This document shows positions 24,500-61,874 of a DNA stretch of 64,000 nt, one piece after another. The notes under the pieces are model-generated. The model made no database searches and was not told the origin of the DNA. It was given only the letters and a program-made list of their open reading frames with translations. Origin of the DNA: a virus (taxonomy: Duplodnaviria; Caudoviricetes); IMG/VR virus record IMGVR_UViG_2885360797_000005. One strand, written 5' to 3'. The position numbers and the translations under genes are program-made. Position 1 is the first letter of the stretch; every line of letters begins with the position of its first letter.

Positions 24500-26860
24500 A
24501 TGGAAGCTAAAGATAGAGAACAATTATATAACGATTTTCAAAAGGCATTCCCTCTAGAGAAATTGAAGGACATGACTTTGGAGCAATATACAAATTTGAA
24601 CAGGGAAGATTCATTTTGCTATTGGCTTGAATCAAAGACATCCGAATTAGGGTCAATATGGGGAGGTGCCGCCTATAAATTTGGTATATTCAAGTTCGAC
24701 AAATTTCCTAAGCAGGATAATGGGAAATATACACATGATGATAACTATTCTTGGAGTAGTCGTTTAGGCAGTACATCAGAAGAGGCATTTAACAATGTCA
24801 AGAATGCAATAGTGAAGATAGCTGAACACGCCAGTAATGCACAATGGAACGAAATTGAAAAGATAAACGAGTTGTGGCCTGTAACTACATGGAAGATTGC
24901 TTTCTTATATTCCAATATGTCCCTTGTCCCCATTTATAAACGGGATATGTTGGACACATTGGCAAGATATTTTAAGATAAACACCCTTAAAGGGAAAAAG
25001 ACATCTGACATACAGCAGTTCTTGATGAAGCAAAAAGGAGACAAAAACCTCTTTGTCTTCTATGGGGAACTTCTGAGTATTCTGGAAGCTGAAAATAAAA
25101 AGAAAACAGAAACAAAGCAGGAAATCAAATACTGGATTTGCGCACCGGGTGACCGTGCAAGTAAATGGGATTTATGCCAACAAGATAACATCATCAGTAT
25201 CGGATGGGACGAAATGGGCGATTATCGTCAATACCCATCTCTTGATGATGTAAAGAAACGTATGCAGACAATCTATGATAAGCCTGACGCATCATTTAAG
25301 AATGACAGTTTGGCCATTTGGCAATTCTGCAACGAAATGACCCCGGGAGATATAATATATGCCAAAGCCGGACAAAAGAAATTTGTCGGTCGTGGCATTG
25401 TGATGTCTGAATATATCTATAACGAAGATTATTCAGACTACATGAATGTCAGAAGGGTTAAATGGACGCATATTGGAGAATGGGAAGCTCCGCATAATAC
25501 AGTTCAAAAGACCCTGACTGACGTTACTCAATACACCAATTACGTTAGAACCTTGGAGGATATGTTTGAGGGTAAAGAATCCAGACGATATTGGTGGCTT
25601 GTGGCCAGTCCCAAAATATGGAGCTTTGACAAAATGAAAGTTGGTGAAGAACAAGATTATACGCTATATAATGATAATGGCAACCAACGACGGATATTTC
25701 AAAACTTTCTGGATGCTAAAGAAGGTGATTTGATAATAGGATATGAAGCCACTCCTACAAAGAAAATTGTAGCCTTAGCAGAAGTGTCAAAGGATACGGA
25801 TGACAAGTATTTCTATTTCAAAAAGACAGAAACATTGCTTTCTGCCATTGATTTCCTATCTATTAAGGAGAATCCTGTTTTTGCGGGGATGGAATTTTTC
25901 AAGAATATGAATGGTTCTTTATTCAAACTTTCCACAGATGAATACAAGGAACTGATGGATGTCATTCGGGAACAGAATCCAATTCGTACGGATGTAAAGT
26001 CGCAAAAGTATGAAAAAGAGAATTTCTTGTCTGACGTGTTCATGAACGAAGAGGAATACGACAAATTAACTATGCTTCTCAAAATGAAGAAGAATGTAAT
26101 TCTTCAAGGAGCACCCGGTGTGGGCAAGACTTATTCTGCCAAACGATTGGCTTATGCCCTAATGGGAGAAAAGGATGATTCCCGAATAGAATTTGTCCAG
26201 TTTCATCAGAACTACAGTTATGAAGATTTTATCATGGGCTACAAACCAAATGCAGAAGGAGGTTTTGAGTTGCGTAATGGTATTTTCTATAACTTCTGTA
26301 AGGTTGCTCAGAACAATCCAGAAAAGCAACATTTCTTTATTATTGATGAGATTAACCGTGGTAATCTGAGTAAAATCTTCGGAGAATTACTGATGCTGAT
26401 AGAAAGTGATTATCGCGATACAGAAATCAAATTGGCTTATAAGGACGAACTGTTTTCTGTCCCCAAAAATCTATACATCATCGGAATGATGAATACAGCT
26501 GATAGGAGTTTGGCTATGATAGACTACGCACTTCGTCGTCGTTTTAGCTTTTTCGAGATGAAACCCGGATTCGATTCTATAGGATTCATAAAGTACCAAA
26601 AAGAAGTTATAGGAGATACTTCTTTTGTTAAAGTCATAGATGGGATTAAGAACCTCAACGACACAATAGAAAAAGAGTTCGGAAGAGGATTCTGTATCGG
26701 GCACAGTTTTTTCTGTAAGCCTAATACAGAAACATATACCATTGCATGGCTGAAGAATGTGATAGAGTTTGACATTAAACCCATGATTCTTGAATATTGG
26801 TTCGACAATGAAAAGAAAGCCCAACAGGAGATTGACAAACTAACTCTTTTACTTCAATGA
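24500..26860 (+). CDS. mcrB: McrB-family GTPase with a long N-terminal region including two EVE/PUA-like domains
   Basis: GAPGVGKT, QFHQNYSYEDF, IDEINRGN, MNTADRS, ALRRRF, IGHSFF. Confidence 0.93.
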   Translation: MEAKDREQLYNDFQKAFPLEKLKDMTLEQYTNLNREDSFCYWLESKTSELGSIWGGAAYKFGIFKFDKFPKQDNGKYTHDDNYSWSSRLGSTSEEAFNNVKNAIVKIAEHASNAQWNEIEKINELWPVTTWKIAFLYSNMSLVPIYKRDMLDTLARYFKINTLKGKKTSDIQQFLMKQKGDKNLFVFYGELLSILEAENKKKTETKQEIKYWICAPGDRASKWDLCQQDNIISIGWDEMGDYRQYPSLDDVKKRMQTIYDKPDASFKNDSLAIWQFCNEMTPGDIIYAKAGQKKFVGRGIVMSEYIYNEDYSDYMNVRRVKWTHIGEWEAPHNTVQKTLTDVTQYTNYVRTLEDMFEGKESRRYWWLVASPKIWSFDKMKVGEEQDYTLYNDNGNQRRIFQNFLDAKEGDLIIGYEATPTKKIVALAEVSKDTDDKYFYFKKTETLLSAIDFLSIKENPVFAGMEFFKNMNGSLFKLSTDEYKELMDVIREQNPIRTDVKSQKYEKENFLSDVFMNEEEYDKLTMLLKMKKNVILQGAPGVGKTYSAKRLAYALMGEKDDSRIEFVQFHQNYSYEDFIMGYKPNAEGGFELRNGIFYNFCKVAQNNPEKQHFFIIDEINRGNLSKIFGELLMLIESDYRDTEIKLAYKDELFSVPKNLYIIGMMNTADRSLAMIDYALRRRFSFFEMKPGFDSIGFIKYQKEVIGDTSFVKVIDGIKNLNDTIEKEFGRGFCIGHSFFCKPNTETYTIAWLKNVIEFDIKPMILEYWFDNEKKAQQEIDKLTLLLQ

Positions 26861-27903
26861 GTGTGAATAAGAACATATTCATCAAGAATATCTACTATAT
26901 GTTGGCATACGCTTTCCAAGAGTTGCAACGTAATCAGTATGAAGATATTCAGAGTGAGGATTTCGACGAGATACATCAATTGCTTGCCGAAATTCTCATT
27001 CATGGTGTATCGTTTCAGTTAAAAAAAGGTCTGCACAAGGAGTACATTTCTAAAACTGAATCTATAGCATCAGTGAAAGGGAAAATAGATATACCGGGCA
27101 CTGTGCAGCACCTTATGCAGAGAAAAATGCGTATATCATGCCAGTATGATGAATTGTCAGAAAATTGTCTATTTAACCAAATCATTAAAACAACATGTGA
27201 GATACTTTTATCACATCCATCTGTAAAGACTAGCCAGAAATTTACGATTAAACGTCTAATGCTTTTCTTTTCAGAAGTGAATGAAATACCCCCTCTTTCT
27301 ATTAAGTGGAACTTGTTGCGTTATGATAGAAACAGTAGAACATATCAAATGTTGCATTATATCTGCTTCTTCATTATTGACAATATGATACTGACAAGCC
27401 AAGAAGGGAAATTCAAAATGAGTCGCTTTTCTGATGAGCATATGTGCAGATTATATGAAAAGTTTGTCTTAGAGTATTATCGAAAGGAACATCCCGAAAC
27501 AAAAGCCCGTGCAGCTCAAATCAAATGGAATATTGACGAACAGCTATCAACAACGGATATATTACCCATACTCCAAACAGACATCTATCTTACACTAAAA
27601 GATAGAACACTTATAATTGATACGAAGTATTATAGTCAAACTATGCAGGAGCATTTTGATAAGGTAAGTATTCACAGTGCTAACCTTAACCAAATACTTG
27701 TCTATGTTTTAAATGAAGATGATAATATGCAGGGGAAAGTAGATGGAATGCTGCTATATGCAAAGACAGATGAAGATATTGTACCTGATGGTCAATTAAA
27801 ATGGAAGACTGGTAGCACTATATATTTCAGGACACTTGACTTAGGTGTTGATTTTAAGTATATTCGCAAACAACTGGATGATTTTTTAATCACTAAATCA
27901 TAG
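26857..27903 (+). CDS. mcrC: McrC restriction nuclease subunit
   Basis: IKNIYYMLAYA, LYEKFV, TDI...IIDTKYY; ATGA overlap with mcrB. Confidence 0.92.
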   Translation: MSVNKNIFIKNIYYMLAYAFQELQRNQYEDIQSEDFDEIHQLLAEILIHGVSFQLKKGLHKEYISKTESIASVKGKIDIPGTVQHLMQRKMRISCQYDELSENCLFNQIIKTTCEILLSHPSVKTSQKFTIKRLMLFFSEVNEIPPLSIKWNLLRYDRNSRTYQMLHYICFFIIDNMILTSQEGKFKMSRFSDEHMCRLYEKFVLEYYRKEHPETKARAAQIKWNIDEQLSTTDILPILQTDIYLTLKDRTLIIDTKYYSQTMQEHFDKVSIHSANLNQILVYVLNEDDNMQGKVDGMLLYAKTDEDIVPDGQLKWKTGSTIYFRTLDLGVDFKYIRKQLDDFLITKS

Positions 27904-27928
27904 TTTTAGATGAAACCAACAATCCATA

Positions 27929-28603
27929 ATGAAGAATAAAATGTCAAGAGCACCCATCTTTACCATCAGCAGGCTCCGTATGGGGACAGACGGACATGGA
28001 GTAACCACGCTTGTCGCTTTCATGGGGTGCCCACTCAAATGCAAGTATTGCCTGAATGAGAAATGCCATGAGCCGATATACGAAGATGATGGAAAGACTC
28101 TGAGGAATGGTATTATGCTGCTTACTCCAAGTGAGTTGTATGATTTGGTAAAGATTGACAACATCTATTTTCAAGCAACAGACGGAGGCATTTGTTTTGG
28201 AGGTGGAGAACCGACATTATATCCAGAGTTTATTGAGGAATTCTGTGACCTTTGTAACGAAAAATGGAAGATTACAATAGAAACTTCGTTGCGCTGTTCC
28301 GGTGAAACTATCAGGAAATTAAGCAAGGCAATAGATTACTGGATTGTGGATGTCAAATCTTTAGATTCGGATACATATTCTTCATACACACGTGTATCAT
28401 CTATGATAGAACAGCATTTGACGATACTGAAACGATGCGTTACGGATAAACAAGCAACGATTAAAGTGCCTATCATTCCCGGATTCAATAACGAAAGTGA
28501 AGCAGATAGAACCGCCGAAGACATCAAAAAAAGGTTTAGGTTTACCAATGTAGTTAAGATTAGATATATAACAAAATATTGTTGTCCAACAAAAATTGAT
28601 TAA
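27929..28603 (+). CDS. Radical SAM protein (activating-enzyme-like, compact)
   Basis: TDGHG...F.GCPLKCKYCLN (CxxxCxxC), GGICFGGGEP, IETS, DVK, P.IPGFN. Confidence 0.9.
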   Translation: MKNKMSRAPIFTISRLRMGTDGHGVTTLVAFMGCPLKCKYCLNEKCHEPIYEDDGKTLRNGIMLLTPSELYDLVKIDNIYFQATDGGICFGGGEPTLYPEFIEEFCDLCNEKWKITIETSLRCSGETIRKLSKAIDYWIVDVKSLDSDTYSSYTRVSSMIEQHLTILKRCVTDKQATIKVPIIPGFNNESEADRTAEDIKKRFRFTNVVKIRYITKYCCPTKID

Positions 28604-28648
28604 TGAAATAACTCCAGTTGCAACATAGGTTTACAAAATAATAGAAAT

Positions 28649-29527
28649 ATGACATCAAGAAAGAATAGCGATGAACACTATGTCATCGATTTATGCGATG
28701 AAGTTCTTGGTTTAAAAGCATCAAGGCAGCAGACTTTTGACTTTCTGCGTGGCGATGGGAATCCCGGAAAGAAACTTCCTGTTGATGCGTATTATCCCCA
28801 ATTAAAACTCGTTGTAGAATATAAGGAGCGGCAACACACAGAATCGGTGGCTTTCTTCAACAAGAAAACCACTGTGAGTGGTGTATGTCGCGACGAACAG
28901 CGACGTATTTATGACCAGCGACGCAGGGACGTTCTGCCCAAGCACGGTATTAAACTGATTGAAATATCATACACTGACTTTAAGTATGACAACCATAAAC
29001 GCCTCATTCGTAATCGACAAGCAGACATGGCTGAAATACGAAGAATACTTTCAAAGACTCAAAATGAAAATCAAAAAGTTGAACATAAAAATACAGATAA
29101 GCAGACAAAAAAAGATGAAAGAAACAATCTAAGGAGTAAAACACCTGTAAAAGATGGAAGACATACTTGGGTTTACTCTGCATATAGTAAGTTTGGCTGC
29201 CTGTTTATATTGGCAGTTGTCTTTTGTACACTATTGATTTCATCTTATCTCACTATATCTGTTTTCGATTTTAACGAAGGTTTATCATTAATAATTATGT
29301 TTTTCTCTTTATTTGTAGTATCATTCATTTTTCATCACTACACAACAGGGGTGGATGAAAAGTTGGATAAGGAAAAATATAAAAGAAAAGAAGTATCTTC
29401 TATTTATAGTAGTACGAACCATAATCCTGTCTGCTGTCCCCAATGTGGAAGTCATACTATAGGTCTGTCAGATAATGGAGGATTCGTCTGTATAGACTGT
29501 GGGGTGCAGTGGTATCAAACATATTAA
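28649..29527 (+). CDS. Putative Vsr/PD-(D/E)XK-like nuclease domain + two TM helices + C-terminal zinc ribbon
   Basis: LPVDAYY...VVEYKERQH; two hydrophobic segments; CPQC...CIDC. Confidence 0.6.
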   Translation: MTSRKNSDEHYVIDLCDEVLGLKASRQQTFDFLRGDGNPGKKLPVDAYYPQLKLVVEYKERQHTESVAFFNKKTTVSGVCRDEQRRIYDQRRRDVLPKHGIKLIEISYTDFKYDNHKRLIRNRQADMAEIRRILSKTQNENQKVEHKNTDKQTKKDERNNLRSKTPVKDGRHTWVYSAYSKFGCLFILAVVFCTLLISSYLTISVFDFNEGLSLIIMFFSLFVVSFIFHHYTTGVDEKLDKEKYKRKEVSSIYSSTNHNPVCCPQCGSHTIGLSDNGGFVCIDCGVQWYQTY

Positions 29528-29659
29528 CTATCATAGAAGAACTGTTTCGGGATTGTGGAGGGAGTCCGTTCCTTATCCAATTATGCCTCAAAATCATAAA
29601 TTTTCCACAAAAAAGTTTACCAGACAGCGATAATTACAGAACATTATAAAAATAAGGTC

Positions 29660-30805
29660 ATGAGTACAGGAAAAGAAAAATGCGAAATGCTAAAAGCAAT
29701 CAGAAAACAGATTGCAGAACGATACAACTTAGAGTACACACCATCAGAATGCACTCACAAAGGAAATTGCCTTGGTACATGCCCTAAATGCGATGCCGAA
29801 CTCCGTGACCTTCAAGAACAGTTAGAACGAAGAGGAATAACGGATATTGATTGGAATGTGGAAATTCCCGAAGAGGAAAGTAGTGTAGATCCAGAGGATT
29901 CTGCCCGCTCTATTCTGCAAGGTGATGTTGAATCACCGAAAGAGCCTGAATTGATAAAAGTAACAATGGGGATGCCCGCTCCTCCATACCTATATAGAGA
30001 TAAAAAACGCGTTCTCTACAAGGAGTGTCAGGTAGCAGGTATTACGTTCCATAACCTTGAAGAAGTTTGGGATGAGTTATATGAGGGGGCTGAACTTGCA
30101 TTAGTCAGAGAAAAAGACAACAAGCACGACAAATATGCTATTGCCGTAGCCTTGGCCGATGATTATGATGGGGAACCGGATGACTTTGATTTTGACTACA
30201 TCTTGGGATATGTACCTCGGTCGGATAATAAGGATTTGGCTGACATGATGGATATGGGTTGGGCAGAAGCTTTTGAATGTGAGCTTAGTCAGGTCAACGG
30301 TTCTAACCCCTATAAGGGAAGTCTGTGGATGAAGATATACATCGTCAGCAAAGACGAGGAAGAATATGAGAATACAGAACACCTGTTGCATGCCATGGAA
30401 CTGGATGATGAAGCATACGAAGAGTTTACCACTTGCATAGAAAATCATGGCTGTGCTTATTTTAGGTGGGGAGGTTTCCAACCGTGTGAATACCACAATT
30501 TCCCAAAGAAAGGCGATAAAGTTGTATTCATACACAAAGGAGAAAATATCTCAGAATTATATCTAATGTATTGCATAGCTGTAGGCGATGATAATGCAGC
30601 CTACTTCGTAGAGGACAAAACCTCATTACATGCTATTGATGACAGTTGCTATTATGTGTTCACTACCATTCACGGCCCACTAAAGGTAAGCAATAATCAA
30701 ATTTCTTTTCTTGAAGATGAGATTGTTTGCGATATTCAAGCTGATGAATACCTTTCAGAAAATGCTTCGACCAAACTACAACTATTATTTGATAGCAGGA
30801 AATAA
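29660..30805 (+). CDS. Cys-rich N-terminal domain + HIRAN domain protein
   Basis: CEMLKAIR...ECTHKGNCLGTCPKCDAE; VAGITF...LVREKDNKHDKYAIAV...LGYVPR. Confidence 0.78.
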   Translation: MSTGKEKCEMLKAIRKQIAERYNLEYTPSECTHKGNCLGTCPKCDAELRDLQEQLERRGITDIDWNVEIPEEESSVDPEDSARSILQGDVESPKEPELIKVTMGMPAPPYLYRDKKRVLYKECQVAGITFHNLEEVWDELYEGAELALVREKDNKHDKYAIAVALADDYDGEPDDFDFDYILGYVPRSDNKDLADMMDMGWAEAFECELSQVNGSNPYKGSLWMKIYIVSKDEEEYENTEHLLHAMELDDEAYEEFTTCIENHGCAYFRWGGFQPCEYHNFPKKGDKVVFIHKGENISELYLMYCIAVGDDNAAYFVEDKTSLHAIDDSCYYVFTTIHGPLKVSNNQISFLEDEIVCDIQADEYLSENASTKLQLLFDSRK

Positions 30806-30807
30806 AT

Positions 30808-32214
30808 ATGATAGGCACAATTATTGGTGATTTGGCGGCTTGGACGTATGAGAATGAGAGAGAAACATTTTGGAATCAACTCATATCATACAACTATGAT
30901 AAAGTTGAGTTGTCCCTATATGCTCATGCTTATTTGCAAGCAGTCAGCATAAATGTACTTAGTGTACCCAATCAAAATGTCAACATAGTAAGGAATACAG
31001 AATGGTCACCCGAAGAATGGCTAAGAGTTGGCGGACAGTGGTTGATGTGGCAACTTATGTGTGCTTGGAATGACAACTTGGTTTACCCGAATGGTAACGA
31101 GAAACTTCCTTCTGTAGAAAAGGAGGAATACTATGCTCGAATGTTTATGGTAGGACTTATCAGAAAACTCCGACATGGCTACACTAAAAGCGATGCTTAT
31201 CACTCTGACGAAATGTTTGTAGATTTTAGCAAACATTGGAAATGGAAACCTTGGCAAGAATCTATTTCAGAAAAAGATAATTATAGCATCCTTACCTGTG
31301 TGTTTCGTGCTTGGGACTCTTTCTATAGAGGCTTTGATTTCACCTCCTCCATTCATAACGCAATGAAATGGGAAGGAAATAGACATCTTATAGCTATGCT
31401 TACCGCTTCGTTTGCAAGTGCCATGTATGGTTGCCAATACAATCTTATCAAGAAGAAATTTGCGAAGAACGGACAAATAAGCCACTTGTTTGAATTGTAT
31501 TGCTTAGGCGAACATTTTGGCTATCATCATGCCTTATGTCACGAAATGATGGACGAAAACAACGGATTCAGGACATTTTACCCCAAGAATAGAGCTTTAA
31601 CAAACGTGGAACGTCATTTTTGGCAAAGTGTAGCAAACCCTTTTGACCGTCTTATATTTTCAGAATCAGATTATAAAAACATAATGAAGTGCTCACCGAC
31701 GGGATGGGATAACAGATATGGCTTATATTTGGATGATGGATGGTTCTATGTATATAGGAGTGGATGCCTAATAGGACGTTTCATGTTAATAGAAGAAGAT
31801 GGCTATTGGCTGATAAAGAACGTACAATTATCGGGCGAACAACCATGGAGAGAGTTTTGTAATGCCTTATTCTGTGCGTTGACAGAAAGCTGCAACTTAC
31901 GTGGATTTTCAGGAAAATATGAAGATTATGCTTCAATATTCAAGTATTATCAAGGAGAACTGACCTGTCCAGAAAAGTGGAAAAATAACGTATCAGGAAA
32001 GTTTTGGCACGGAGAAATGATGTTCTGCACTAATCATATCAGCATTGAAGAGTGGACGAAAAAAGCCGAGAATGCTCTCAAAAATATGGAACCCGATAAA
32101 CAGAAATACGCAAAATCCATGTCTCTTCGTCAGTTTGGTGTGATATTATTTATTGAAACCCTATATAGTAAATGGTGTTCTTACGATAATATGGATTGGA
32201 TATATGAGTATTAG
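30808..32214 (+). CDS. Degenerate ADP-ribosylglycohydrolase-like multidomain protein
   Basis: MIGTIIGDLAAWTYE resembles the ARH start MLGAIIGDI.GS.YE; GNRHLIAMLTASFASAMYG aligns with GDSDTIAAI.G.IAEA.YG. Confidence 0.6.
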   Translation: MIGTIIGDLAAWTYENERETFWNQLISYNYDKVELSLYAHAYLQAVSINVLSVPNQNVNIVRNTEWSPEEWLRVGGQWLMWQLMCAWNDNLVYPNGNEKLPSVEKEEYYARMFMVGLIRKLRHGYTKSDAYHSDEMFVDFSKHWKWKPWQESISEKDNYSILTCVFRAWDSFYRGFDFTSSIHNAMKWEGNRHLIAMLTASFASAMYGCQYNLIKKKFAKNGQISHLFELYCLGEHFGYHHALCHEMMDENNGFRTFYPKNRALTNVERHFWQSVANPFDRLIFSESDYKNIMKCSPTGWDNRYGLYLDDGWFYVYRSGCLIGRFMLIEEDGYWLIKNVQLSGEQPWREFCNALFCALTESCNLRGFSGKYEDYASIFKYYQGELTCPEKWKNNVSGKFWHGEMMFCTNHISIEEWTKKAENALKNMEPDKQKYAKSMSLRQFGVILFIETLYSKWCSYDNMDWIYEY

Positions 32215-32308
32215 ATTGATTCTATTCAAATAGATTTCGCTATAAATCACAAAATCACATTCTTAAAAGGCTTATATTTGCAGATTATAAGGAATTAGTT
32301 GATAGCAT

Positions 32309-34537
32309 ATGCAAAAGCTCCGTTGTGTAGTAGAACGAATCACCTACCAAAATCCCGAAAACGGGTATTCGGTGATGAGGGTCAAGGTCAAAGGATACAA
32401 TGACCTTGTAACCCTTGTCGGCAATCTGTTGGAAGTGCCGGCAGGGAGTGTTCTGCTGTGCGAAGGGGATTGGAAAGTGGATAAGCGATACGGCAACCAG
32501 TTTGTAGCGGAGAGTTGGGAAGAGGTCATGCCCGCCACCATCTATGGCATAGAGAAGTACCTGGGCAGCGGACTGGTGAAAGGCATCGGCCCGAAATTCG
32601 CCCAACTTATCGTCAGTCGTTTCGGACTGGAAACCATCGATGTGATTGAAACCGATATTGAACGGCTCCACGAAGTGCCCGGCATCGGCAAGAAACGTGT
32701 GGAGAAGATTGCCGAGAGTTGGGAGAAGCAGAAGGACATCAAGAACGTGATGCTCTTCCTGCAAGGTTATGGAGTCAGTACCGCATACGCTGCCAAAATC
32801 TATCGTCAATACGGAAAAGAAAGCATTGATACCGTCAAGGCCAATCCCTATAAACTGGCAGATGACATCTGGGGCATCGGTTTCAAGACAGCCGACGGCA
32901 TAGCCGCCAAGATGGGTTATGAGAAGAACGACCTTCGTCGTTGCAAGAGCGGCATCACCTACACACTCAGCCACCTTTCCGAAGAAGGACACGTCTATGC
33001 CGAAGAGGAACAACTCCTGAATGCGGCCATCGAACTCTTGAAGGCGGACGAAGAACCCATCCGTCAGGCTATGTCAGAAATGTTGCAGAGTGAAGACCTG
33101 ATACAAGACGGTGACGCACTCTATATGCCACCCTTCTATTATGCAGAAGTAGGAACAGCCAACCGTCTGAGCGGATTATTGAATAATGCGGACGGAAATC
33201 TCTTCCAAAAAGCATTAGACATCGCTGCCATCTCCAAAGCCTCCGGCATAGAGTATGACGAAGTGCAGGTGGAAGCCATCCGTGAAGCAGTCGCCTCCAA
33301 GGTTATGGTGCTGACAGGTGGTCCCGGAACGGGAAAGACCACCACCACACAAGGAATCATCGCAGCCTTGAAGAGCATGGGACTGAGCATCCTGCTTGCC
33401 GCACCTACCGGACGAGCCGCCAAACGAATGAGTGAAGCGACAGGGATGGAGGCAAAGACCATCCACCGCCTATTGGAATACAATCCGAAAGACGGTTACA
33501 AACGCAATGACGAGAACCCGTTGGAAGGGGATGCCCTTATCGTGGACGAATGTTCCATGATAGACATCATTCTGATGAACAACCTGATGAAAGCCTTACC
33601 AACGAATATGCGCCTGGTATTGGTGGGCGACATCGACCAGTTGCCCAGCGTAGGTGCCGGAAACGTACTTCGTAACATCATCGACTCTGAGAGAATACCG
33701 GTCATCCGCCTGACACGCATCTTCCGACAGGCACAGACCAGCCGTATCGTCATGAGTGCCCATGCCATCAACAAGGGACAGTTCCCCGACACCAGCAACG
33801 GCAAGCAGACCGATTTCTTCTTCATGCAGATAGAAGAACCGGAACAGGTGGCGGAAACCATCGTCAAGTTGGTAAAGGAACGATTGCCCAAAGCATACAA
33901 CCGCCCGGCAAGCGACATCCAAGTCCTCACACCTATGCAACGAGGGGTGGTAGGTGCAGCCAATCTGAATATAGCCCTACAAGCCGTTCTGAACACCTCC
34001 CAGTTGGTACTGACCAGAAGTGGTTATTCCTTCCGTCAAGGCGACAGAGTGATGCAACTCCGCAACAATTATGACAAGGATGTGTTCAACGGTGACCTGG
34101 GATATGTAGAGAAAGTGAACTTGGAAGATAGAACCCTGCAAGTGGACTTCGATGGCAAGTTAGTGGAATACGAAGTTTCGGAACTGGACGAGCTGACCTT
34201 AGCCTACGCAACAACCATCCACAAGTCGCAAGGCTCGGAATATCCCATCGTGGTGATGCCTGTCCTGATGACGCACTACGTGATGCTCCAACGCAACCTT
34301 ATCTATACAGGTATCACCCGTGCTAAGAAGATTTGTGTACTGGTAGGAACAAAGAAAGCATTGTCTTTCGCCATCCGCAATATGTCGGTGCTGAAACGCA
34401 ACACGAAATTGAAAGAACGGCTGAATCCGGCATTAACACAACCCGGCAAAGCCACGTCCCCCAAAGAATATATGCTTCCGACACAAACGGAGTACGGCAT
34501 GGTAGCAGAAGAGAAAACTGAATACGGAAAGAAATAG
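32309..34537 (+). CDS. recD2: RecD2-family SF1B helicase
   Basis: OB-like N-terminus, HhH repeats, GGPGTGKT, APTGRAA, VDECSM, GDIDQL, TIHKSQGSE, YTGITRA. Confidence 0.95.
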   Translation: MQKLRCVVERITYQNPENGYSVMRVKVKGYNDLVTLVGNLLEVPAGSVLLCEGDWKVDKRYGNQFVAESWEEVMPATIYGIEKYLGSGLVKGIGPKFAQLIVSRFGLETIDVIETDIERLHEVPGIGKKRVEKIAESWEKQKDIKNVMLFLQGYGVSTAYAAKIYRQYGKESIDTVKANPYKLADDIWGIGFKTADGIAAKMGYEKNDLRRCKSGITYTLSHLSEEGHVYAEEEQLLNAAIELLKADEEPIRQAMSEMLQSEDLIQDGDALYMPPFYYAEVGTANRLSGLLNNADGNLFQKALDIAAISKASGIEYDEVQVEAIREAVASKVMVLTGGPGTGKTTTTQGIIAALKSMGLSILLAAPTGRAAKRMSEATGMEAKTIHRLLEYNPKDGYKRNDENPLEGDALIVDECSMIDIILMNNLMKALPTNMRLVLVGDIDQLPSVGAGNVLRNIIDSERIPVIRLTRIFRQAQTSRIVMSAHAINKGQFPDTSNGKQTDFFFMQIEEPEQVAETIVKLVKERLPKAYNRPASDIQVLTPMQRGVVGAANLNIALQAVLNTSQLVLTRSGYSFRQGDRVMQLRNNYDKDVFNGDLGYVEKVNLEDRTLQVDFDGKLVEYEVSELDELTLAYATTIHKSQGSEYPIVVMPVLMTHYVMLQRNLIYTGITRAKKICVLVGTKKALSFAIRNMSVLKRNTKLKERLNPALTQPGKATSPKEYMLPTQTEYGMVAEEKTEYGKK

Positions 34538-34571
34538 TATCATCATATTATATTTGCCCCAAAAGTAGATT

Positions 34572-35579
34572 ATGAAACACGCTGAATTTAAGGCTATAGC
34601 CAGACAACATCAAATAGATTTCAAGGTCAATGACCCGGAGATTAACATTGCCGCTGATAGATTTCCTATCCGTACTATTCGGAAGAACGGCAAGAAATAT
34701 AAGATAGAGGTAAAAAGTTCTTTAACTTGGAAGGATTGCCGTGATGAGCATAACCTTTATCGCATTTTCTTCAGCGGATTCCGAAAAGAGATAACGGAAG
34801 AAGTTGACAAAGAAGCTTCTTTGACAAAAGGGCAAATGGTTACAAATCTTTTGCGCAGCGAACACATCCCATACAACGTATTCTTTCCCATGCGACATGA
34901 CCTGGATGGGACAGCCCGCCTGTTCAATCGTATTCTCGGAGAGGAACGAATAGCTACCATCAGCCAGATACTTGTTGAGCATAACCCCGGAGGGCTTAAA
35001 GATGGCACATCCTTTGATGTTTACATCGAATATGCTCCCATGGGAGCAAATCCCGGTGAGAAGGGCGGCATTGGCATTGAGGTGAAATACACGGAAAAGG
35101 AGTATCTTATCAAGCATGGCACGAAAGAATGGGAAGAAACACATAATGCTTCCGGCATTCATCTTGCAGACAATTACAGCAACCCAAGCAATGCCTGCGG
35201 CTGGTTCAAACCGGAGTTTATAGCAGACGTACCGTTTGAAGACAAAGAGAGGATGACATCCCATGTGACAGCCAACCGTTACCGCCAGATATGGCGCAAC
35301 CACATTCTTGGTGCATCCATGATACTCGGATTGTGCGAGAACCAAGATGATAAACTTACGGAGTTTACAAGTCTCACGGTTTATCCCAAAGGAAACGGGC
35401 ATTTCTCGGAAATCTGGGGCGAATACGAATCCAAGCTGACTCCGGCCGGATTGCAAACATTCAAGCACATCACCTACGAAGATCTGTTCCCCTTGATGCA
35501 GGAGTGTCTGAATGAAGCCAACATTCCTAATCTCAATGAGTGGATGGATTACCTTAACAGACGATATATCATAAAATGA
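34572..35579 (+). CDS. PD-(D/E)XK putative restriction endonuclease (PGN_0703-like)
   Basis: NLLRSE...N.F.P, TSFDV, IGIEVKYTE, QIWRNH. Confidence 0.72.
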   Translation: MKHAEFKAIARQHQIDFKVNDPEINIAADRFPIRTIRKNGKKYKIEVKSSLTWKDCRDEHNLYRIFFSGFRKEITEEVDKEASLTKGQMVTNLLRSEHIPYNVFFPMRHDLDGTARLFNRILGEERIATISQILVEHNPGGLKDGTSFDVYIEYAPMGANPGEKGGIGIEVKYTEKEYLIKHGTKEWEETHNASGIHLADNYSNPSNACGWFKPEFIADVPFEDKERMTSHVTANRYRQIWRNHILGASMILGLCENQDDKLTEFTSLTVYPKGNGHFSEIWGEYESKLTPAGLQTFKHITYEDLFPLMQECLNEANIPNLNEWMDYLNRRYIIK

Positions 35580-36169
35580 GAATTTTACACCTATCAGATA
35601 CTCACGGTTGCCATCATCGGCTATACGACTTGCCCGAAGCGGACATTCTTGTCCATTCTGGTGATTTCACTATGTCAGGAAGCGAGAAGGAAGCCCTTGA
35701 CTTCTTGAACTGGTTTTGTGACCTCCCATATCCGCACAAGATATTCATCTGTGGTAACCATGATGAATGTCTGTATGGGGCAAACATCAGTGGCCTTAAC
35801 AACAATGTCCATTATCTATGCAATTCCGGTTTGGAAATTGAAGGTTTGAAGTTCTATGGTGTACCCATGTTCATGAGTGACTGCATCAGTGACCGACAAA
35901 ACCGGAACTATGCCGAAATACCTTCCGATACCGATGTGTTGATAACGCATTGTCCGCCATACGGCATATTAGACTTTGATGATAACATAAACTACGGCTC
36001 GGAAGAATTGTTGCAACGGATTACACAGATTCATCCACGGCTGCACTTGTTTGGGCATATACATATACAACATGGAATTACCCATAATGGCGCAACCACA
36101 TTTTCCAACGGTGCCATTATGAACGTAGATTATTCTCAACTCAATGATGCTAATCTGATAGAGCTATAA
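35576..36169 (+). CDS. Calcineurin-like metallophosphoesterase
   Basis: SDTH, GDFT, GNHD, THCPP, FGHIH; ATGA overlap with the upstream gene. Confidence 0.92.
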   Translation: MRILHLSDTHGCHHRLYDLPEADILVHSGDFTMSGSEKEALDFLNWFCDLPYPHKIFICGNHDECLYGANISGLNNNVHYLCNSGLEIEGLKFYGVPMFMSDCISDRQNRNYAEIPSDTDVLITHCPPYGILDFDDNINYGSEELLQRITQIHPRLHLFGHIHIQHGITHNGATTFSNGAIMNVDYSQLNDANLIEL

Positions 36170-59340: not shown

Positions 59341-61874
59341 GTAGGCTCGACACAAAGCGCGTTACCGCATTGCTGCGGCACGTTTCCACGTGTCTGCCCC
59401 CGAACCGGACGTACATGTCTCCATGTATCCGGCTCTCCAGTGGTTTAACTCTATGTGTCATAAGCAAGTGTCTCATTTCTTTTTCTGATTGATGATTTCC
59501 ATACAAGATTTACATACTGCAAGCGTCTTTCTCCTGCGTCTGAGCATCTGCCTACCCCAAGGGGTATCGTTGTCAAGCTCAGACAGCAACCGCACATGGT
59601 GCATATGGAGCTGTTGGTTTTCTTGACCGCATAACTCACACTTTCCCGCTTTCAGACGGTTGATTAGAGTCGTTTTCGGCAATTGCTCCGCGACTGCCTC
59701 AAGATGTGTCTGCTCGTCATAGCCCTTGGGCTTCCTTGCGAATCCCATGTTGTAGAGGACGGTCTCCTTGGTGGTTCCGTTCTTATCCTTATGGGTAATC
59801 ACGAATCTACCTTTCTTGGAGTAGCGTCTTTTGACCTTGGATTTGGTCAGGTTCAGCTTTTGGGCCAGCGTTTTGCATAGACTGTATTCCATGATGTACG
59901 CGAATGACGAACATTGTCTTGAACAGTTATTGGCGATGCAGTAGTAATTGTAGAATCCTCTTATCTCCGAATTGAACCTGCTGAGGATAATGTGCGGTTC
60001 CATTGCCAGCATCTTTGTACGCGATTTCGGCATCCACACGGTTTTGCCGTCCAACTCACGGTATGTGACGGCATCGTGCTTTTCAAGAGCCTTTCTCACG
60101 GTCTCGGAATTTACAAGCAACTGCACTTTTCCTCTATGGTTGCGTTGGAGAATGCCCCTGCTGTTTCTGCTCATCATGTCGGAGTTCAGCACCGTAATAT
60201 CATAGCCAAGGAATTTTGCGGTTTCCTCGCAATGGGTTATCAAGGTCTTTTCGGGCGACAGTTCGAGTTTGAGGCAATCACGCATATGTGCAGTGATGTC
60301 TGCCTTGATGTTCTCGCAGTCTGTCTTTGACCCGATTACGCCTATAAGGAAATCGTCAGCATACCTTGTATATACGATACGTCGGTAATCTTCGTCCATA
60401 TCGAGCTTGCAGGGAATGGTTCTCAGTTGAGCCTGCATGACGGCAAGCCGTTCCGTCATGTCAGCCCTCTTGTTTTCATCTGTCTCTTGGCGCAGTTTGC
60501 GTCTCAACGCACAAGTTTTGGTATTGAGATTGAAATACGTCGGATTGCGCTTGCGACCTACACCTCTGTTAAAAGTCTTGGCATAATCTTCCATGTATCT
60601 GTCGAAGCGGTTAAGGTAGATATTGGCAAGTATCGGGGAGATAATGCCACCTTGGGGTGTGCCGTGATAGGATTCATGGAATTTCCAATCCTCGACATAT
60701 CCTGCATTGAGGAACTTACGAATCATACGGAGAAAACGCTCGTCGGAAATCCGCTCACGCAGGATGTCGATGAGTGTGTCGTGGTCGATATTGTCGAAGA
60801 AGCCTTTTATGTCACCTTCGACAAACCACTTCACACCCGTGAACGTCCTTTGAATCTGAGTCAGTGCGGTATGGCAGCTCTTGTGAGGTCTGAAGCCATG
60901 GGAGCGGTCGGAGAACGCACCCTCATAGATGGCTTGCAGAATCATCCGCGCTACCTCCTGCACAAGCTTGTCACTCCATGACGGGATTCCGAGAGGACGC
61001 AGTTTCCCGTTTTTCTTCGGGATATATGTCCTCTTTGCAGGATGTGGGGTATAGGTCTCATCCTTGAGACTTTCAATCAGTCGCTTAATCTTCGCGAGGC
61101 TCATGCCGTCCATGGTCTCCCCGTCAGTGCCGGGCGTCATGTTGCCCTGCTTGACTTTGAGCCTCTCGTAAGCGGCATAATACATCTCCTCATTGAAGAG
61201 CAAGCGGTAGAGACGCTCGTACTTATAGTCCGAGGTCTTGCTGTGTGAACACAGAGTGTCGATTATCAACTGTGGATTTCTCATACGTCTCTCACGTCTT
61301 CTACGGTTGATAACTGACAGCCACCTGCCACCCTTCGCCATGTACGCGGCTTTCCCGCGCTCGGACTACTATGGTGGCTCCGTTGCCATGTCGGGTATTC
61401 ATGACCTTTGTCAATAGCCTTGCGGCATCCCGATTTAGGCAATCTTCGCTTAGATATATAGCAACAGGCACAGCATACTGTCGGATACGACTTTCGTTCT
61501 TCTATCCGCTTATTGCGGTCGCTTCGGGACTGACTCGTTGCCTTGCGCGAAAATGCAGGTCGCGCAGGTGTCCCGATACGGCGTATGTAACTGCTTTCCG
61601 CCGTAGCCACTTCTAAGGCCGCTGAACTATCGTTCAACCAATCAGGCTTTATCCTCATGTATGCCTTTCTTCCTTGCACCTCAGTCGCGGATTTGCAGTT
61701 ATCCGACTCGGCACTTTTCAGACATGCTGTTTTCCTCCCTTGGTTTCCCGCAGAAGTGTCCGCTCCGTCACCACAAGGGTGGCAGAGAGTAAGTCTGATG
61801 GAAGTAGGTAAAATTGAGTCCATACCTAAACTATTGCTATTTAGTTATTTGCTATATATCCTATACGAACGCAC
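59341..61874 (-). mobile_element. Group II intron (2534 nt, LtrB-like)
   Basis: 5' GTGCG at 61874; domain V GAGCCGGATACATGGAGACATGTACGTCCGGTTC; domain VI ending ...AGCCTAC at 59341; IEP inside. Confidence 0.93.
59473..61284 (-). CDS. ltrA: Intron-encoded reverse transcriptase/maturase/endonuclease
   Basis: PKKNGKLRPLGIP, GDIKGFFD, GTPQGG, RYADDF, X domain, CELC...HHV...C..C endonuclease-like domain. Confidence 0.93.
   Translation of the reverse strand: MRNPQLIIDTLCSHSKTSDYKYERLYRLLFNEEMYYAAYERLKVKQGNMTPGTDGETMDGMSLAKIKRLIESLKDETYTPHPAKRTYIPKKNGKLRPLGIPSWSDKLVQEVARMILQAIYEGAFSDRSHGFRPHKSCHTALTQIQRTFTGVKWFVEGDIKGFFDNIDHDTLIDILRERISDERFLRMIRKFLNAGYVEDWKFHESYHGTPQGGIISPILANIYLNRFDRYMEDYAKTFNRGVGRKRNPTYFNLNTKTCALRRKLRQETDENKRADMTERLAVMQAQLRTIPCKLDMDEDYRRIVYTRYADDFLIGVIGSKTDCENIKADITAHMRDCLKLELSPEKTLITHCEETAKFLGYDITVLNSDMMSRNSRGILQRNHRGKVQLLVNSETVRKALEKHDAVTYRELDGKTVWMPKSRTKMLAMEPHIILSRFNSEIRGFYNYYCIANNCSRQCSSFAYIMEYSLCKTLAQKLNLTKSKVKRRYSKKGRFVITHKDKNGTTKETVLYNMGFARKPKGYDEQTHLEAVAEQLPKTTLINRLKAGKCELCGQENQQLHMHHVRLLSELDNDTPWGRQMLRRRRKTLAVCKSCMEIINQKKK

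Follow-up and report, generated by a model that had tools for sequence, protein, structure and literature searches.

A compact radical SAM enzyme and a portable five-cysteine head domain form a dedicated pair, carried with a HIRAN protein on a Bacteroidales conjugative element

The locus described here lies in a stretch of 64,000 nucleotides (nt) from the record IMGVR_UViG_2885360797_000005; this whole stretch is called the window. It represents the cargo region of a conjugative element from gut Bacteroidales and has genes for a type IV secretion system coupling protein, TraG, ArdC, PcfJ and a primase. Within it, defence genes (an AbiEii-like ATPase, Type I restriction-modification (R-M) and EVE-McrBC) are followed by a gene for a compact radical S-adenosylmethionine (SAM) enzyme and three further genes. 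An initial annotation of the stretch had described four co-oriented genes that start 25 nt 3' of the McrC gene and are separated by gaps of 45, 132 and 2 nt, and the open reading frame coordinates agree with this layout. Two parts of this row, the radical SAM enzyme and an N-terminal cysteine-rich domain of the third gene product, here called the five-Cys head, form a dedicated pair. The genes and domains concerned are as follows.

26857-27903, + strand: McrC gene, directly 5' of the radical SAM gene
27929-28603, + strand: gene 1, compact radical SAM enzyme of 224 amino acids (aa), from a subfamily that pairs with the five-Cys head; motifs CPLKCKYC and GGGEP; assigned with Pfam, NCBIfam, a subfamily profile and a tree
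28649-29527, + strand: gene 2, 292 aa, a non-core insertion; PD-(D/E)XK-like N-terminus (residues 1-137), two transmembrane (TM) helices (residues ~177-233) and a C-terminal zinc ribbon
29660-30805, + strand: gene 3, Cys-HIRAN protein, 381 aa
29660-29833, + strand: five-Cys head of gene 3 (residues 1-58); alignment A1; co-occurs with and adjoins the radical SAM enzyme, and is also found fused to it
30026-30271, + strand: HIRAN domain of gene 3 (residues 123-204); PF08797, E 6.9e-9, 35.9 bits against a cut-off of 24.7 bits
30362-30805, + strand: conserved C-terminal domain of gene 3 (residues ~235-381), fold not assigned; FRWGGF...P.KGDKVVF...DDC..YVLT..GP, alignment A4
30808-32214, + strand: gene 4, p468, 468 aa; ADP-ribosylhydrolase (ARH)-fold pseudoenzyme (residues 1-256), KA1/TBP-like alpha/beta domain (residues 270-368) and helical C-terminal domain (residues 371-468)

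The product of gene 1 matches the Pfam Radical_SAM model (E 3.5e-15). Its nearest NCBIfam models are those of glycyl-radical activases, and all scores are below the curated cut-offs: 112.8 against 174.35 bits for TIGR02494, 75.5 against 231.75 bits for PflA (TIGR02493) and 46.4 against 131.15 bits for NrdG2. Only three cysteines are conserved in the enzyme, and the TIGR02494 alignment passes over the ferredoxin-like insert. The protein collection holds 3653 homologues, the best 120 of which are 61-100% identical. With a hidden Markov model (HMM) of the subfamily, the window enzyme scores 347 bits and no member of the family or its fusions falls under 183 bits; ordinary activases score 105-112 bits. 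In a quick maximum-likelihood tree, the subfamily is separated from ordinary activases with full support (100% SH-aLRT) by a stem of 1.48, and the window enzyme falls inside the subfamily clade. Five of the six HIRAN-associated enzymes group with the top database matches in one clade (99%), and the enzyme of locus L033 lies outside it. Among 201 genomes sampled across the order, subfamily enzymes are 40-46% identical and 203-229 aa long, compared with 29-37% identity and open frames of 260-299 aa for ordinary activases. Three HIRAN-associated enzymes (L055:565-1476, L056:2693-3709 and L057:1499-2392) carry a conserved N-terminal extension of ~90-120 residues with no Pfam match.

As glycyl-radical enzyme (GRE) activase models are the best NCBIfam matches, and PflA is the best structural match, gene 1 might be taken for an ordinary glycyl-radical or NrdG-type activase that has its present neighbour by chance. 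However, the scores lie under every curated cut-off, the clade is separate with 100% support, and the enzyme and the head show strict co-occurrence and fusion, as described below. The initial annotation had pointed to an activase-like enzyme with no glycyl-radical enzyme nearby, and no Gly_radical domain was found on the window's contig. The same genome has its own pyruvate formate-lyase (PFL) on a different contig (C27), and an ordinary activase above the cut-off on another (C36). Thus, from the HMM scores, the separate clade and the presence of PFL and an ordinary activase elsewhere in the genome, the enzyme is not a stray PflA or NrdG; the grouping with these that the annotation had also considered is not seen, and the idea of an ordinary activase beside a chance neighbour is hardly credible.

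The distribution of the enzyme was compared with that of the head in the 201 genomes, using E<1e-40 for the enzyme and E<1e-22 for a head profile that covers residues 1 to ~60 of gene 3 (alignment A1). The enzyme subfamily and the head are found in an identical set of four genomes. One of these has a single unlinked enzyme gene and four unlinked head proteins, of which two carry a TM segment and CarboxypepD_reg, one a TM segment and TonB_C, and one a TM segment only. The window genome has one enzyme and one head-bearing protein; their genes are on the same strand in the window, 1056 nt apart, with one gene between them.

Genome, metagenome and own-family searches together yielded 17 Cys-HIRAN loci. 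The radical SAM gene lies 5' and on the same strand in 14 of the 17, and the gap between the two core genes is 10-60 nt in most of the loci other than the window. As to the remaining loci, a 37-residue remnant of the enzyme gene is found in G207, and the contig of L035 is too short to judge. In genome G299, whose completeness is 99%, the subfamily enzyme is missing, and C8, C41 and C44 are gone from the head. Three headless paralogues that keep the HIRAN and C-terminal domains have no adjacent radical SAM gene, and no subfamily enzyme at all was found in two of their three genomes.

Heads are present in roughly 45 of 400 species genomes of the family sample. Apart from ~50 clusters of HIRAN proteins, the carriers include TonB_C proteins and an RpoA-CTD-like helix-hairpin-helix protein. 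As the majority of heads belong to membrane proteins of the TonB-like kind, encoded among housekeeping genes, the pair is a general-purpose module. The Cys-HIRAN form is often found in defence islands, after McrBC, GmrSD, BREX or McrC. In the phage collection, the enzyme together with heads is found on two contigs only, the short, unannotated faecal records named 'Bacteriophage sp.' (MT838070.1 and MT837469.1), which have the enzyme beside one and three head-bearing genes, respectively. A phage origin of the pair was considered from these records, but they look like bacterial fragments and give no evidence for it.

Enzyme and head are also joined in single polypeptides. A Lachnospiraceae (Wujia) protein, in which an unassigned N-terminal domain (X) is followed by the head and then by the enzyme, was used as the query for fusions. 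The X-head-enzyme type is about 500 aa long and comprises ~30 clusters, head-enzyme fusions are 311-329 aa long, and enzyme-head fusions with no further domain are many (288-349 aa; P0230 alone has 115 members), such that fusions exist in both orders. In P0222, P0249, P0251 and ~40 further clusters, an FtsK-gamma winged-helix DNA-binding domain is N-terminal to the enzyme, with no full head. The C-terminal helix of these proteins resembles helix 1 of the head and was considered as a minimal docking element, but was dropped as it is present in a subset only. Other subfamily enzymes are fused to HAD_SAK_2 or LpoB-like domains. P0301 and P0302 lack the five-Cys part, and the enzyme runs straight into a TM helix and TonB_C; a deletion or an artefact of assembly could account for this.

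The pairing of enzyme and head is a dedicated one, and the head itself is portable from one unrelated client to another. The initial annotation had stated that the Cys-rich domain recurs beside this radical SAM subfamily with variable C-terminal fusions, which agrees with the genome and locus searches. It had also proposed that the enzyme partners the Cys-rich domain, and the co-occurrence, the adjacency in 14 of the 17 loci, the fusions and the joint loss bear this out. From these patterns we infer that enzyme and head bind each other.

The head has eleven invariant positions in alignment A1 (G4, C8, L11, R15, C31, G35, C37, G39, C41, C44 and L51), all of which are present in the window protein. 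Its cysteines 8, 31, 37, 41 and 44 form the pattern C-x22-C-x5-C-x3-C-x2-C. It has only weak matches in Pfam (Fer4_7, E 0.012; Zn_ribbon_6, E 0.063), with nothing above cut-off in Pfam or NCBIfam, and has neither a curated family nor a Pfam model of its own. The fusion of this cluster to HIRAN, as read in the initial annotation, is correct in both the cysteine positions and the above-cut-off PF08797 match. All 28 members of the family match PF08797, and the HIRAN domain of gene 3 has a conserved N-x-H-D-x-x-A motif. A HIRAN profile search of the PDB gave a match to lp_0118 (3k2y) and weak matches to HLTF HIRAN structures. HIRAN domains bind 3'-OH DNA ends, and from its sequence that of gene 3 should likewise bind 3'-OH ends of single-stranded DNA. 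The C-terminal domain has no Pfam or PDB sequence match. In the ESM Atlas, the leads were weak only and pointed to HIRAN proteins and to a single PUA-like cluster, and the same domain is also found on headless HIRAN proteins (L058, L059 and L061).

No TM-like segment was found in the Cys-HIRAN protein (maximum 19-residue hydropathy 0.81). Its head is followed by an acidic linker, HIRAN and the soluble, beta-rich C-terminal domain, with no TM segment, signal peptide or envelope domain. By its sequence, the protein is a soluble variant of the head-bearing partners, and such a soluble, cytoplasmic client argues against a function of the head that is tied to export. In two metagenome-assembled genomes, the Cys-HIRAN gene is broken by a single frameshift, in an A-run after the head (L024:7656-8797) and inside the Cys cluster (L025:5287-6392). 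Recoding was rejected here, as the sites differ, and the frameshifts are probably assembly errors or decay.

The gene between the two core genes is not itself part of the core. The N-terminus of gene 2 matches PvuRts1I_N weakly (E 9e-5, below cut-off), and its C-terminus is a CxxC...CxxC ribbon. None of the 16 other Cys-HIRAN loci has this gene. With 40-62% identity, its N-terminal domain (residues 1-137) recurs in eight other order-sample genomes, all of which lack the enzyme subfamily; in these, it stands alone or after a different N-terminal domain. Once it adjoins an open frame that, by the look of its sequence only, resembles a Type I specificity subunit. In L034, an unrelated gene for a 551-aa protein with a signal peptide has the position of gene 2, and the genes found between enzyme and client in the window, L034 and L020 are mutually unrelated. 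The nuclease/TM gene is separate cargo, inserted within the core pair.

The initial annotation had taken all four genes as a single module, that is, the radical SAM, nuclease/TM, Cys-HIRAN and ARH-like genes co-evolving in one defence system. Their common orientation and close spacing would suit this, as would the Cys-HIRAN/p468 junction, which recurs in L036 (another sample of the window's element), and a p468 homologue directly 3' of Cys-HIRAN in L033, a distant locus in which both are preceded by BREX genes. However, all the genes from Type I R-M through the phosphatase are on the + strand, and because this whole run is co-oriented, the shared orientation of the four says little. The nuclease/TM gene, found in none of the other 16 loci, also has an independent phyletic pattern, and p468 is absent from all nine other family-sample loci and has relatives in seven other genomes without the radical SAM gene. 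Of the co-occurrence that the annotation had expected, the part concerning the enzyme and the Cys-rich head holds (the same 4 of 201 genomes, 14 of 17 loci), but the part concerning gene 2 and p468 does not, as a p468 homologue adjoins Cys-HIRAN in one other locus only (L033). The four-gene module is largely refuted as regards the nuclease/TM gene, and as a single co-evolving unit it is very unlikely. The annotation's view that the four genes fit no named system is upheld: in PADLOC-DB 2.0 they match no named anti-phage system, and there are only weak domain-level matches to pVip (31 bits), mREase_II (18.9 bits) and, via HIRAN, PDC-M03B (30 bits), with none for p468.

The protein p468 was modelled with AlphaFold 2 (AF2) from 59 homologues (pLDDT 92.8), and its family comprises 209 representative clusters. 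For residues 1-256, the nine best PDB matches all have the ARH fold (Z 12.5-14.8; the next is at Z 6.1), and the top Foldseek matches are DraG and ARH proteins. Residues 270-368 resemble KA1/TBP domains weakly (Z 5-6). The sequence EGNRHL (family consensus p-g-d-k-h-l) is aligned with GGDADT and GDDADS of 2cwc and 6dre, and the metal-binding GGDxDT motif is gone. Thus, an ARH-fold protein with eroded catalytic motifs, as first annotated, is found here. No Pfam match was obtained for p468, including to PF03747, to which the L033 homologue scores 16.8 bits against a cut-off of 26.2 bits.

Homologues of p468 are found beside a recurring set of genes. One adjoins a PDDEXK_13/REase-ARP nuclease (L082) and one adjoins an HD phosphatase and a headless protein with the HIRAN and C-terminal domains (L088). 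Others are near BrxL and a helicase-like gene (L085), and near a WYL-type-looking regulator and a PARG-type macro-domain-looking gene (L086), all four neighbours being recognised by the look of their sequences only. In L091, the p468 C-terminal domain shares an operon with a WYL regulator, stand-alone HIRAN and a canonical ARH; in L090, it is found in a WYL-HIRAN operon that has a different radical SAM gene. In L089, a stand-alone HIRAN adjoins a REase-ARP homologue. The radical SAM protein of L090 (L090:7079-7822, genome G382) has 247 aa and the motif CSKQCSFC, and is found with the WYL regulator, the stand-alone HIRAN, the protein with the p468 C-terminal domain and a protein of Sel1 repeats; HIRAN systems and radical SAM enzymes are thus linked a second time, and independently.

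In the window, p468 is followed by three more genes of this kind.

32309-34537, + strand: RecD2-type helicase (Pfam, PADLOC)
34572-35579, + strand: PD-(D/E)XK nuclease, PDDEXK_13/REase-ARP (PF20796, E 1.8e-41; PF22558, E 1.5e-21)
35576-36169, + strand: calcineurin-like metallophosphoesterase (Metallophos, E 1.3e-14; PADLOC candidate PDC-S10, E 6.3e-78)

The first 4 nt of the phosphatase gene are shared with the REase-ARP gene, and this overlap suggests that PDC-S10, a single-gene candidate in PADLOC, in fact belongs to a larger unit of several genes. RecD2 is probably partnered with the ARH-like gene, and not with the radical SAM gene. In L062, a RecD2 that is 79% identical is found beside a HIRAN protein with a degenerate head.

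The ARG-centric conflict systems predicted by Iyer, Burroughs, Anantharaman & Aravind in 2022 (PMC9503650, section 3.8) combine ARG with a phosphatase (calcineurin-like or HD), REases, helicases and WYL or Nudix, sometimes with Macro or NADAR. Their ARPP component is also linked to HIRAN, and a WYL or Nudix one-component regulator is present in ~42% of the systems (PMC9503650). The window resembles them in having p468, RecD2, the fast-evolving nuclease REase-ARP and the phosphatase in a row (30808-36169), and p468 relatives are found with WYL, HD phosphatase, NADAR and HIRAN. As both these contexts and the genes downstream in the window match the published systems, p468 is assigned primarily to the ARG-centric network, and the protein with the HIRAN and C-terminal domains is the bridge between this network and the radical SAM pair. 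The window differs in that its ARH domain has no GGDxDT metal site. Furthermore, PMC9503650 makes no mention of radical SAM enzymes or of a Cys-rich head, and the published systems are predictions only. The ARG protein of the published systems has no ADP-ribosyltransferase coupled to it, and none was seen among the scanned genes that neighbour p468. Nor was a WYL or Nudix regulator found among the genes scanned at 24500-36169, a scan that did not cover small open reading frames or the rest of the window. NADAR (E ~1e-55) is found directly 5' of the radical SAM gene or its remnant in L053:220-789 and L054:2802-3950. These two count as one observation because they are close relatives, and this one lineage adds to the ADP-ribose theme.

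Elsewhere in the window, the McrB homologue (24500-26860) is an unusually composite reader-McrB, with a PD-T4-1-like N-terminus (E 1.6e-25), a PDC-S02-like region, EVE and an AAA_5 GTPase module. The conjugation region contains a gene for a group II intron reverse transcriptase/maturase that has an HNH domain (59473-61341). A promoter and terminator scan gave counts close to the shuffled expectation; Bacteroidetes promoters are outside its model.

Taken together, the anatomy is very probably that of a two-gene core, in which a minimal PflA-like radical SAM enzyme serves a client with a dedicated N-terminal five-Cys head, while gene 2 is separate and p468 belongs to the HIRAN/ARG/REase-ARP/phosphatase/helicase network. 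The head may be a metal- or iron-sulphur (Fe-S)-binding docking domain that completes the minimal enzyme and replaces the auxiliary-cluster domain missing from it. Any protein that carries the head would then become a subunit that positions the radical SAM chemistry. In the window, HIRAN would bring this chemistry to, or gate it at, the free 3' ends of DNA that is invading or being transferred, with the ARH-like sensor and the helicase, nuclease and phosphatase genes acting alongside. Anatomy and docking mechanism together are the best explanation as a whole, with about an even chance of being right.

For the docking step, the head as an auxiliary Fe-S subunit is tentatively, and only slightly, preferred over the head as a substrate. 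The enzyme-head-only fusions, the five invariant cysteines with their C-x3-C-x2-C spacing and weak resemblance to Fer4, and the lack of extra cysteines in the enzyme all support docking, as does a confident AF2 model of a natural enzyme-head fusion, P0228, made from a 49-sequence alignment (pLDDT 89.8, pTM 0.87; head blocks 85-97). In this model, the head consists of two helices joined by a Cys-rich loop of 20 residues. The core is nearest to PflA 3c8f (Foldseek, E 1.9e-15; VIA, Z 22.4, 208 residues, 24% identity), followed by QueE (Z 17.9). Structural alignments of P0228 to the SPASM/twitch enzymes SuiB, anSME and PqqE reach into the head region, and it would fit these if the head sits where auxiliary-cluster domains lie.

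Several points weigh against this explanation. With respect to anatomy, L031 has a 95% identical RecD2 after the radical SAM-CysHIRAN pair and an unrelated 265-aa gene, with no p468. As p468 directly follows Cys-HIRAN in two distantly related loci (the window and L033), some link between p468 and the cassette is possible. Several Cys-HIRAN loci are chromosomal, among housekeeping genes, and a defence role is therefore not general. With respect to mechanism, the SPASM-like placement of the head is read from alignment ranges only, and the other points would suit a head that is the substrate, or a regulatory tag, of the enzyme. In that case, the radical SAM enzyme would install a thioether or other cysteine cross-link, or a glycyl or thiyl radical, and this modification would mature, switch or destabilise the client; in the window it would control the HIRAN protein. 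PflA, both the nearest structure and the closest solved relative, is an activase that acts on protein substrates. A single enzyme for many proteins that share a small tag, here as many as four clients with heads, is what modification systems also show, and the existence of headless paralogues of the same clients makes the head look like an add-on control element. The invariant Gly35 and Gly39 next to the cysteines would suit a modification site, and head and enzyme are lost together. A periplasmic TonB_C domain that directs a cytoplasmic enzyme is hard to explain, and a regulatory tag fits better. However, fusions of the enzyme with the head only are common, and make little sense as an enzyme plus its substrate alone. 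The head also has no RVxG-type glycyl-radical motif, and Cys-cross-linking enzymes normally have SPASM or twitch clusters, which this one does not. A substrate or tag role for the head is thus possible and is to be taken seriously, if somewhat doubtful.

The cassette may alternatively serve the conjugative element itself, and not phage defence. HIRAN would then bind the 3' end of the transferred strand, or nicked or ADP-ribosylated DNA in the recipient, and the pair would protect, repair or prime DNA, or counter host defences that ADP-ribosylate DNA. The element of the window also carries ArdC, PcfJ and primase genes, L033 and L062 are likewise on conjugative-element DNA, ARH-like genes lie 3' in the window and L033, and NADAR, a DNA/ADP-ribose glycohydrolase family, is directly 5' of the radical SAM gene in L053/L054. 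However, the cassette lies in variable cargo among Type I R-M, McrBC, GmrSD and BREX, and not beside leading-region genes. Several of the loci are on chromosomes, next to housekeeping genes, and the two NADAR loci amount to a single observation. Service to the element is unlikely.

Under either model of the head, docking domain or tag, radical SAM activity would be coupled to a predicted 3'-end-binding protein amid restriction and ADP-ribose-related genes. A bolder and distinctly improbable proposal is that HIRAN recruits the radical SAM enzyme to free DNA 3' ends via a portable five-Cys Fe-S adaptor, and that the enzyme there carries out radical chemistry, either on nucleic acid itself or on an ADP-ribose adduct linked to DNA. 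The pair would be an effector or sensor of a mobile-element immune or counter-immune system, and the adaptor would let one enzyme plug into TonB-like membrane proteins and other DNA-binding domains. Action of the enzyme at DNA ends, if true, would give radical SAM enzymes a novel type of role in mobile-element conflicts.

The pair is abundant in gut and rumen anaerobes, with thousands of enzyme homologues, and is uncharacterised; no published description of it was found in the literature. The window holds a soluble, single-client version with no membrane anchor, which should be far easier to express and assay than the TonB-type partners. Natural controls are provided by headless paralogues that have no enzyme beside them, by the degenerate head of a genome from which the enzyme is absent, and by the fusions in either order. 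The locus also ties the pair to HIRAN and to ARG-centric, ADP-ribose-related conflict systems.

Among known radical SAM proteins, the PflA and other GRE activases (TIGR02493/TIGR02494; PDB 3C8F/3CB8) share with the window enzyme a compact, partial TIM-barrel radical SAM fold, an N-terminal G-rich loop, CX3CX2C and GGE motifs, and a dedicated protein partner. The window enzyme differs from them in its scores below the cut-offs, its separate clade and the absence of a glycyl-radical enzyme partner; its partner is instead a 58-residue five-Cys domain with no RVxG. It also lacks the ferredoxin-like insert found in most TIGR02494 members. The SPASM/twitch enzymes (anSME, SuiB and PqqE), with their C-terminal auxiliary Fe-S domains, are similar in having a Cys-rich accessory beside the radical SAM core. 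However, the Cys-rich domain here is usually a separate polypeptide, N-terminal on unrelated clients. The head has no sequence match to SPASM models, and its core spacing, C-x5-C-x3-C, is presumably also that of the SPASM motif.

HLTF and stand-alone bacterial HIRAN proteins (PF08797; 3K2Y, 4S0N) resemble gene 3 in the above-cut-off match and the N-x-[HY]-D-x-N-A core, the Asp of which binds the 3'-OH in HLTF. The HIRAN of the window differs in being fused to a five-Cys head and a C-terminal domain of unassigned fold. Prokaryotic viperins (pVip) are known radical SAM antiviral enzymes, and the window enzyme is like them in being a radical SAM protein of defence islands with a weak PADLOC pVip match. 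However, it scores 26 bits with the NCBIfam viperin model against a cut-off of 180 bits, is much smaller, and is paired with a protein partner and not with a nucleotide kinase.

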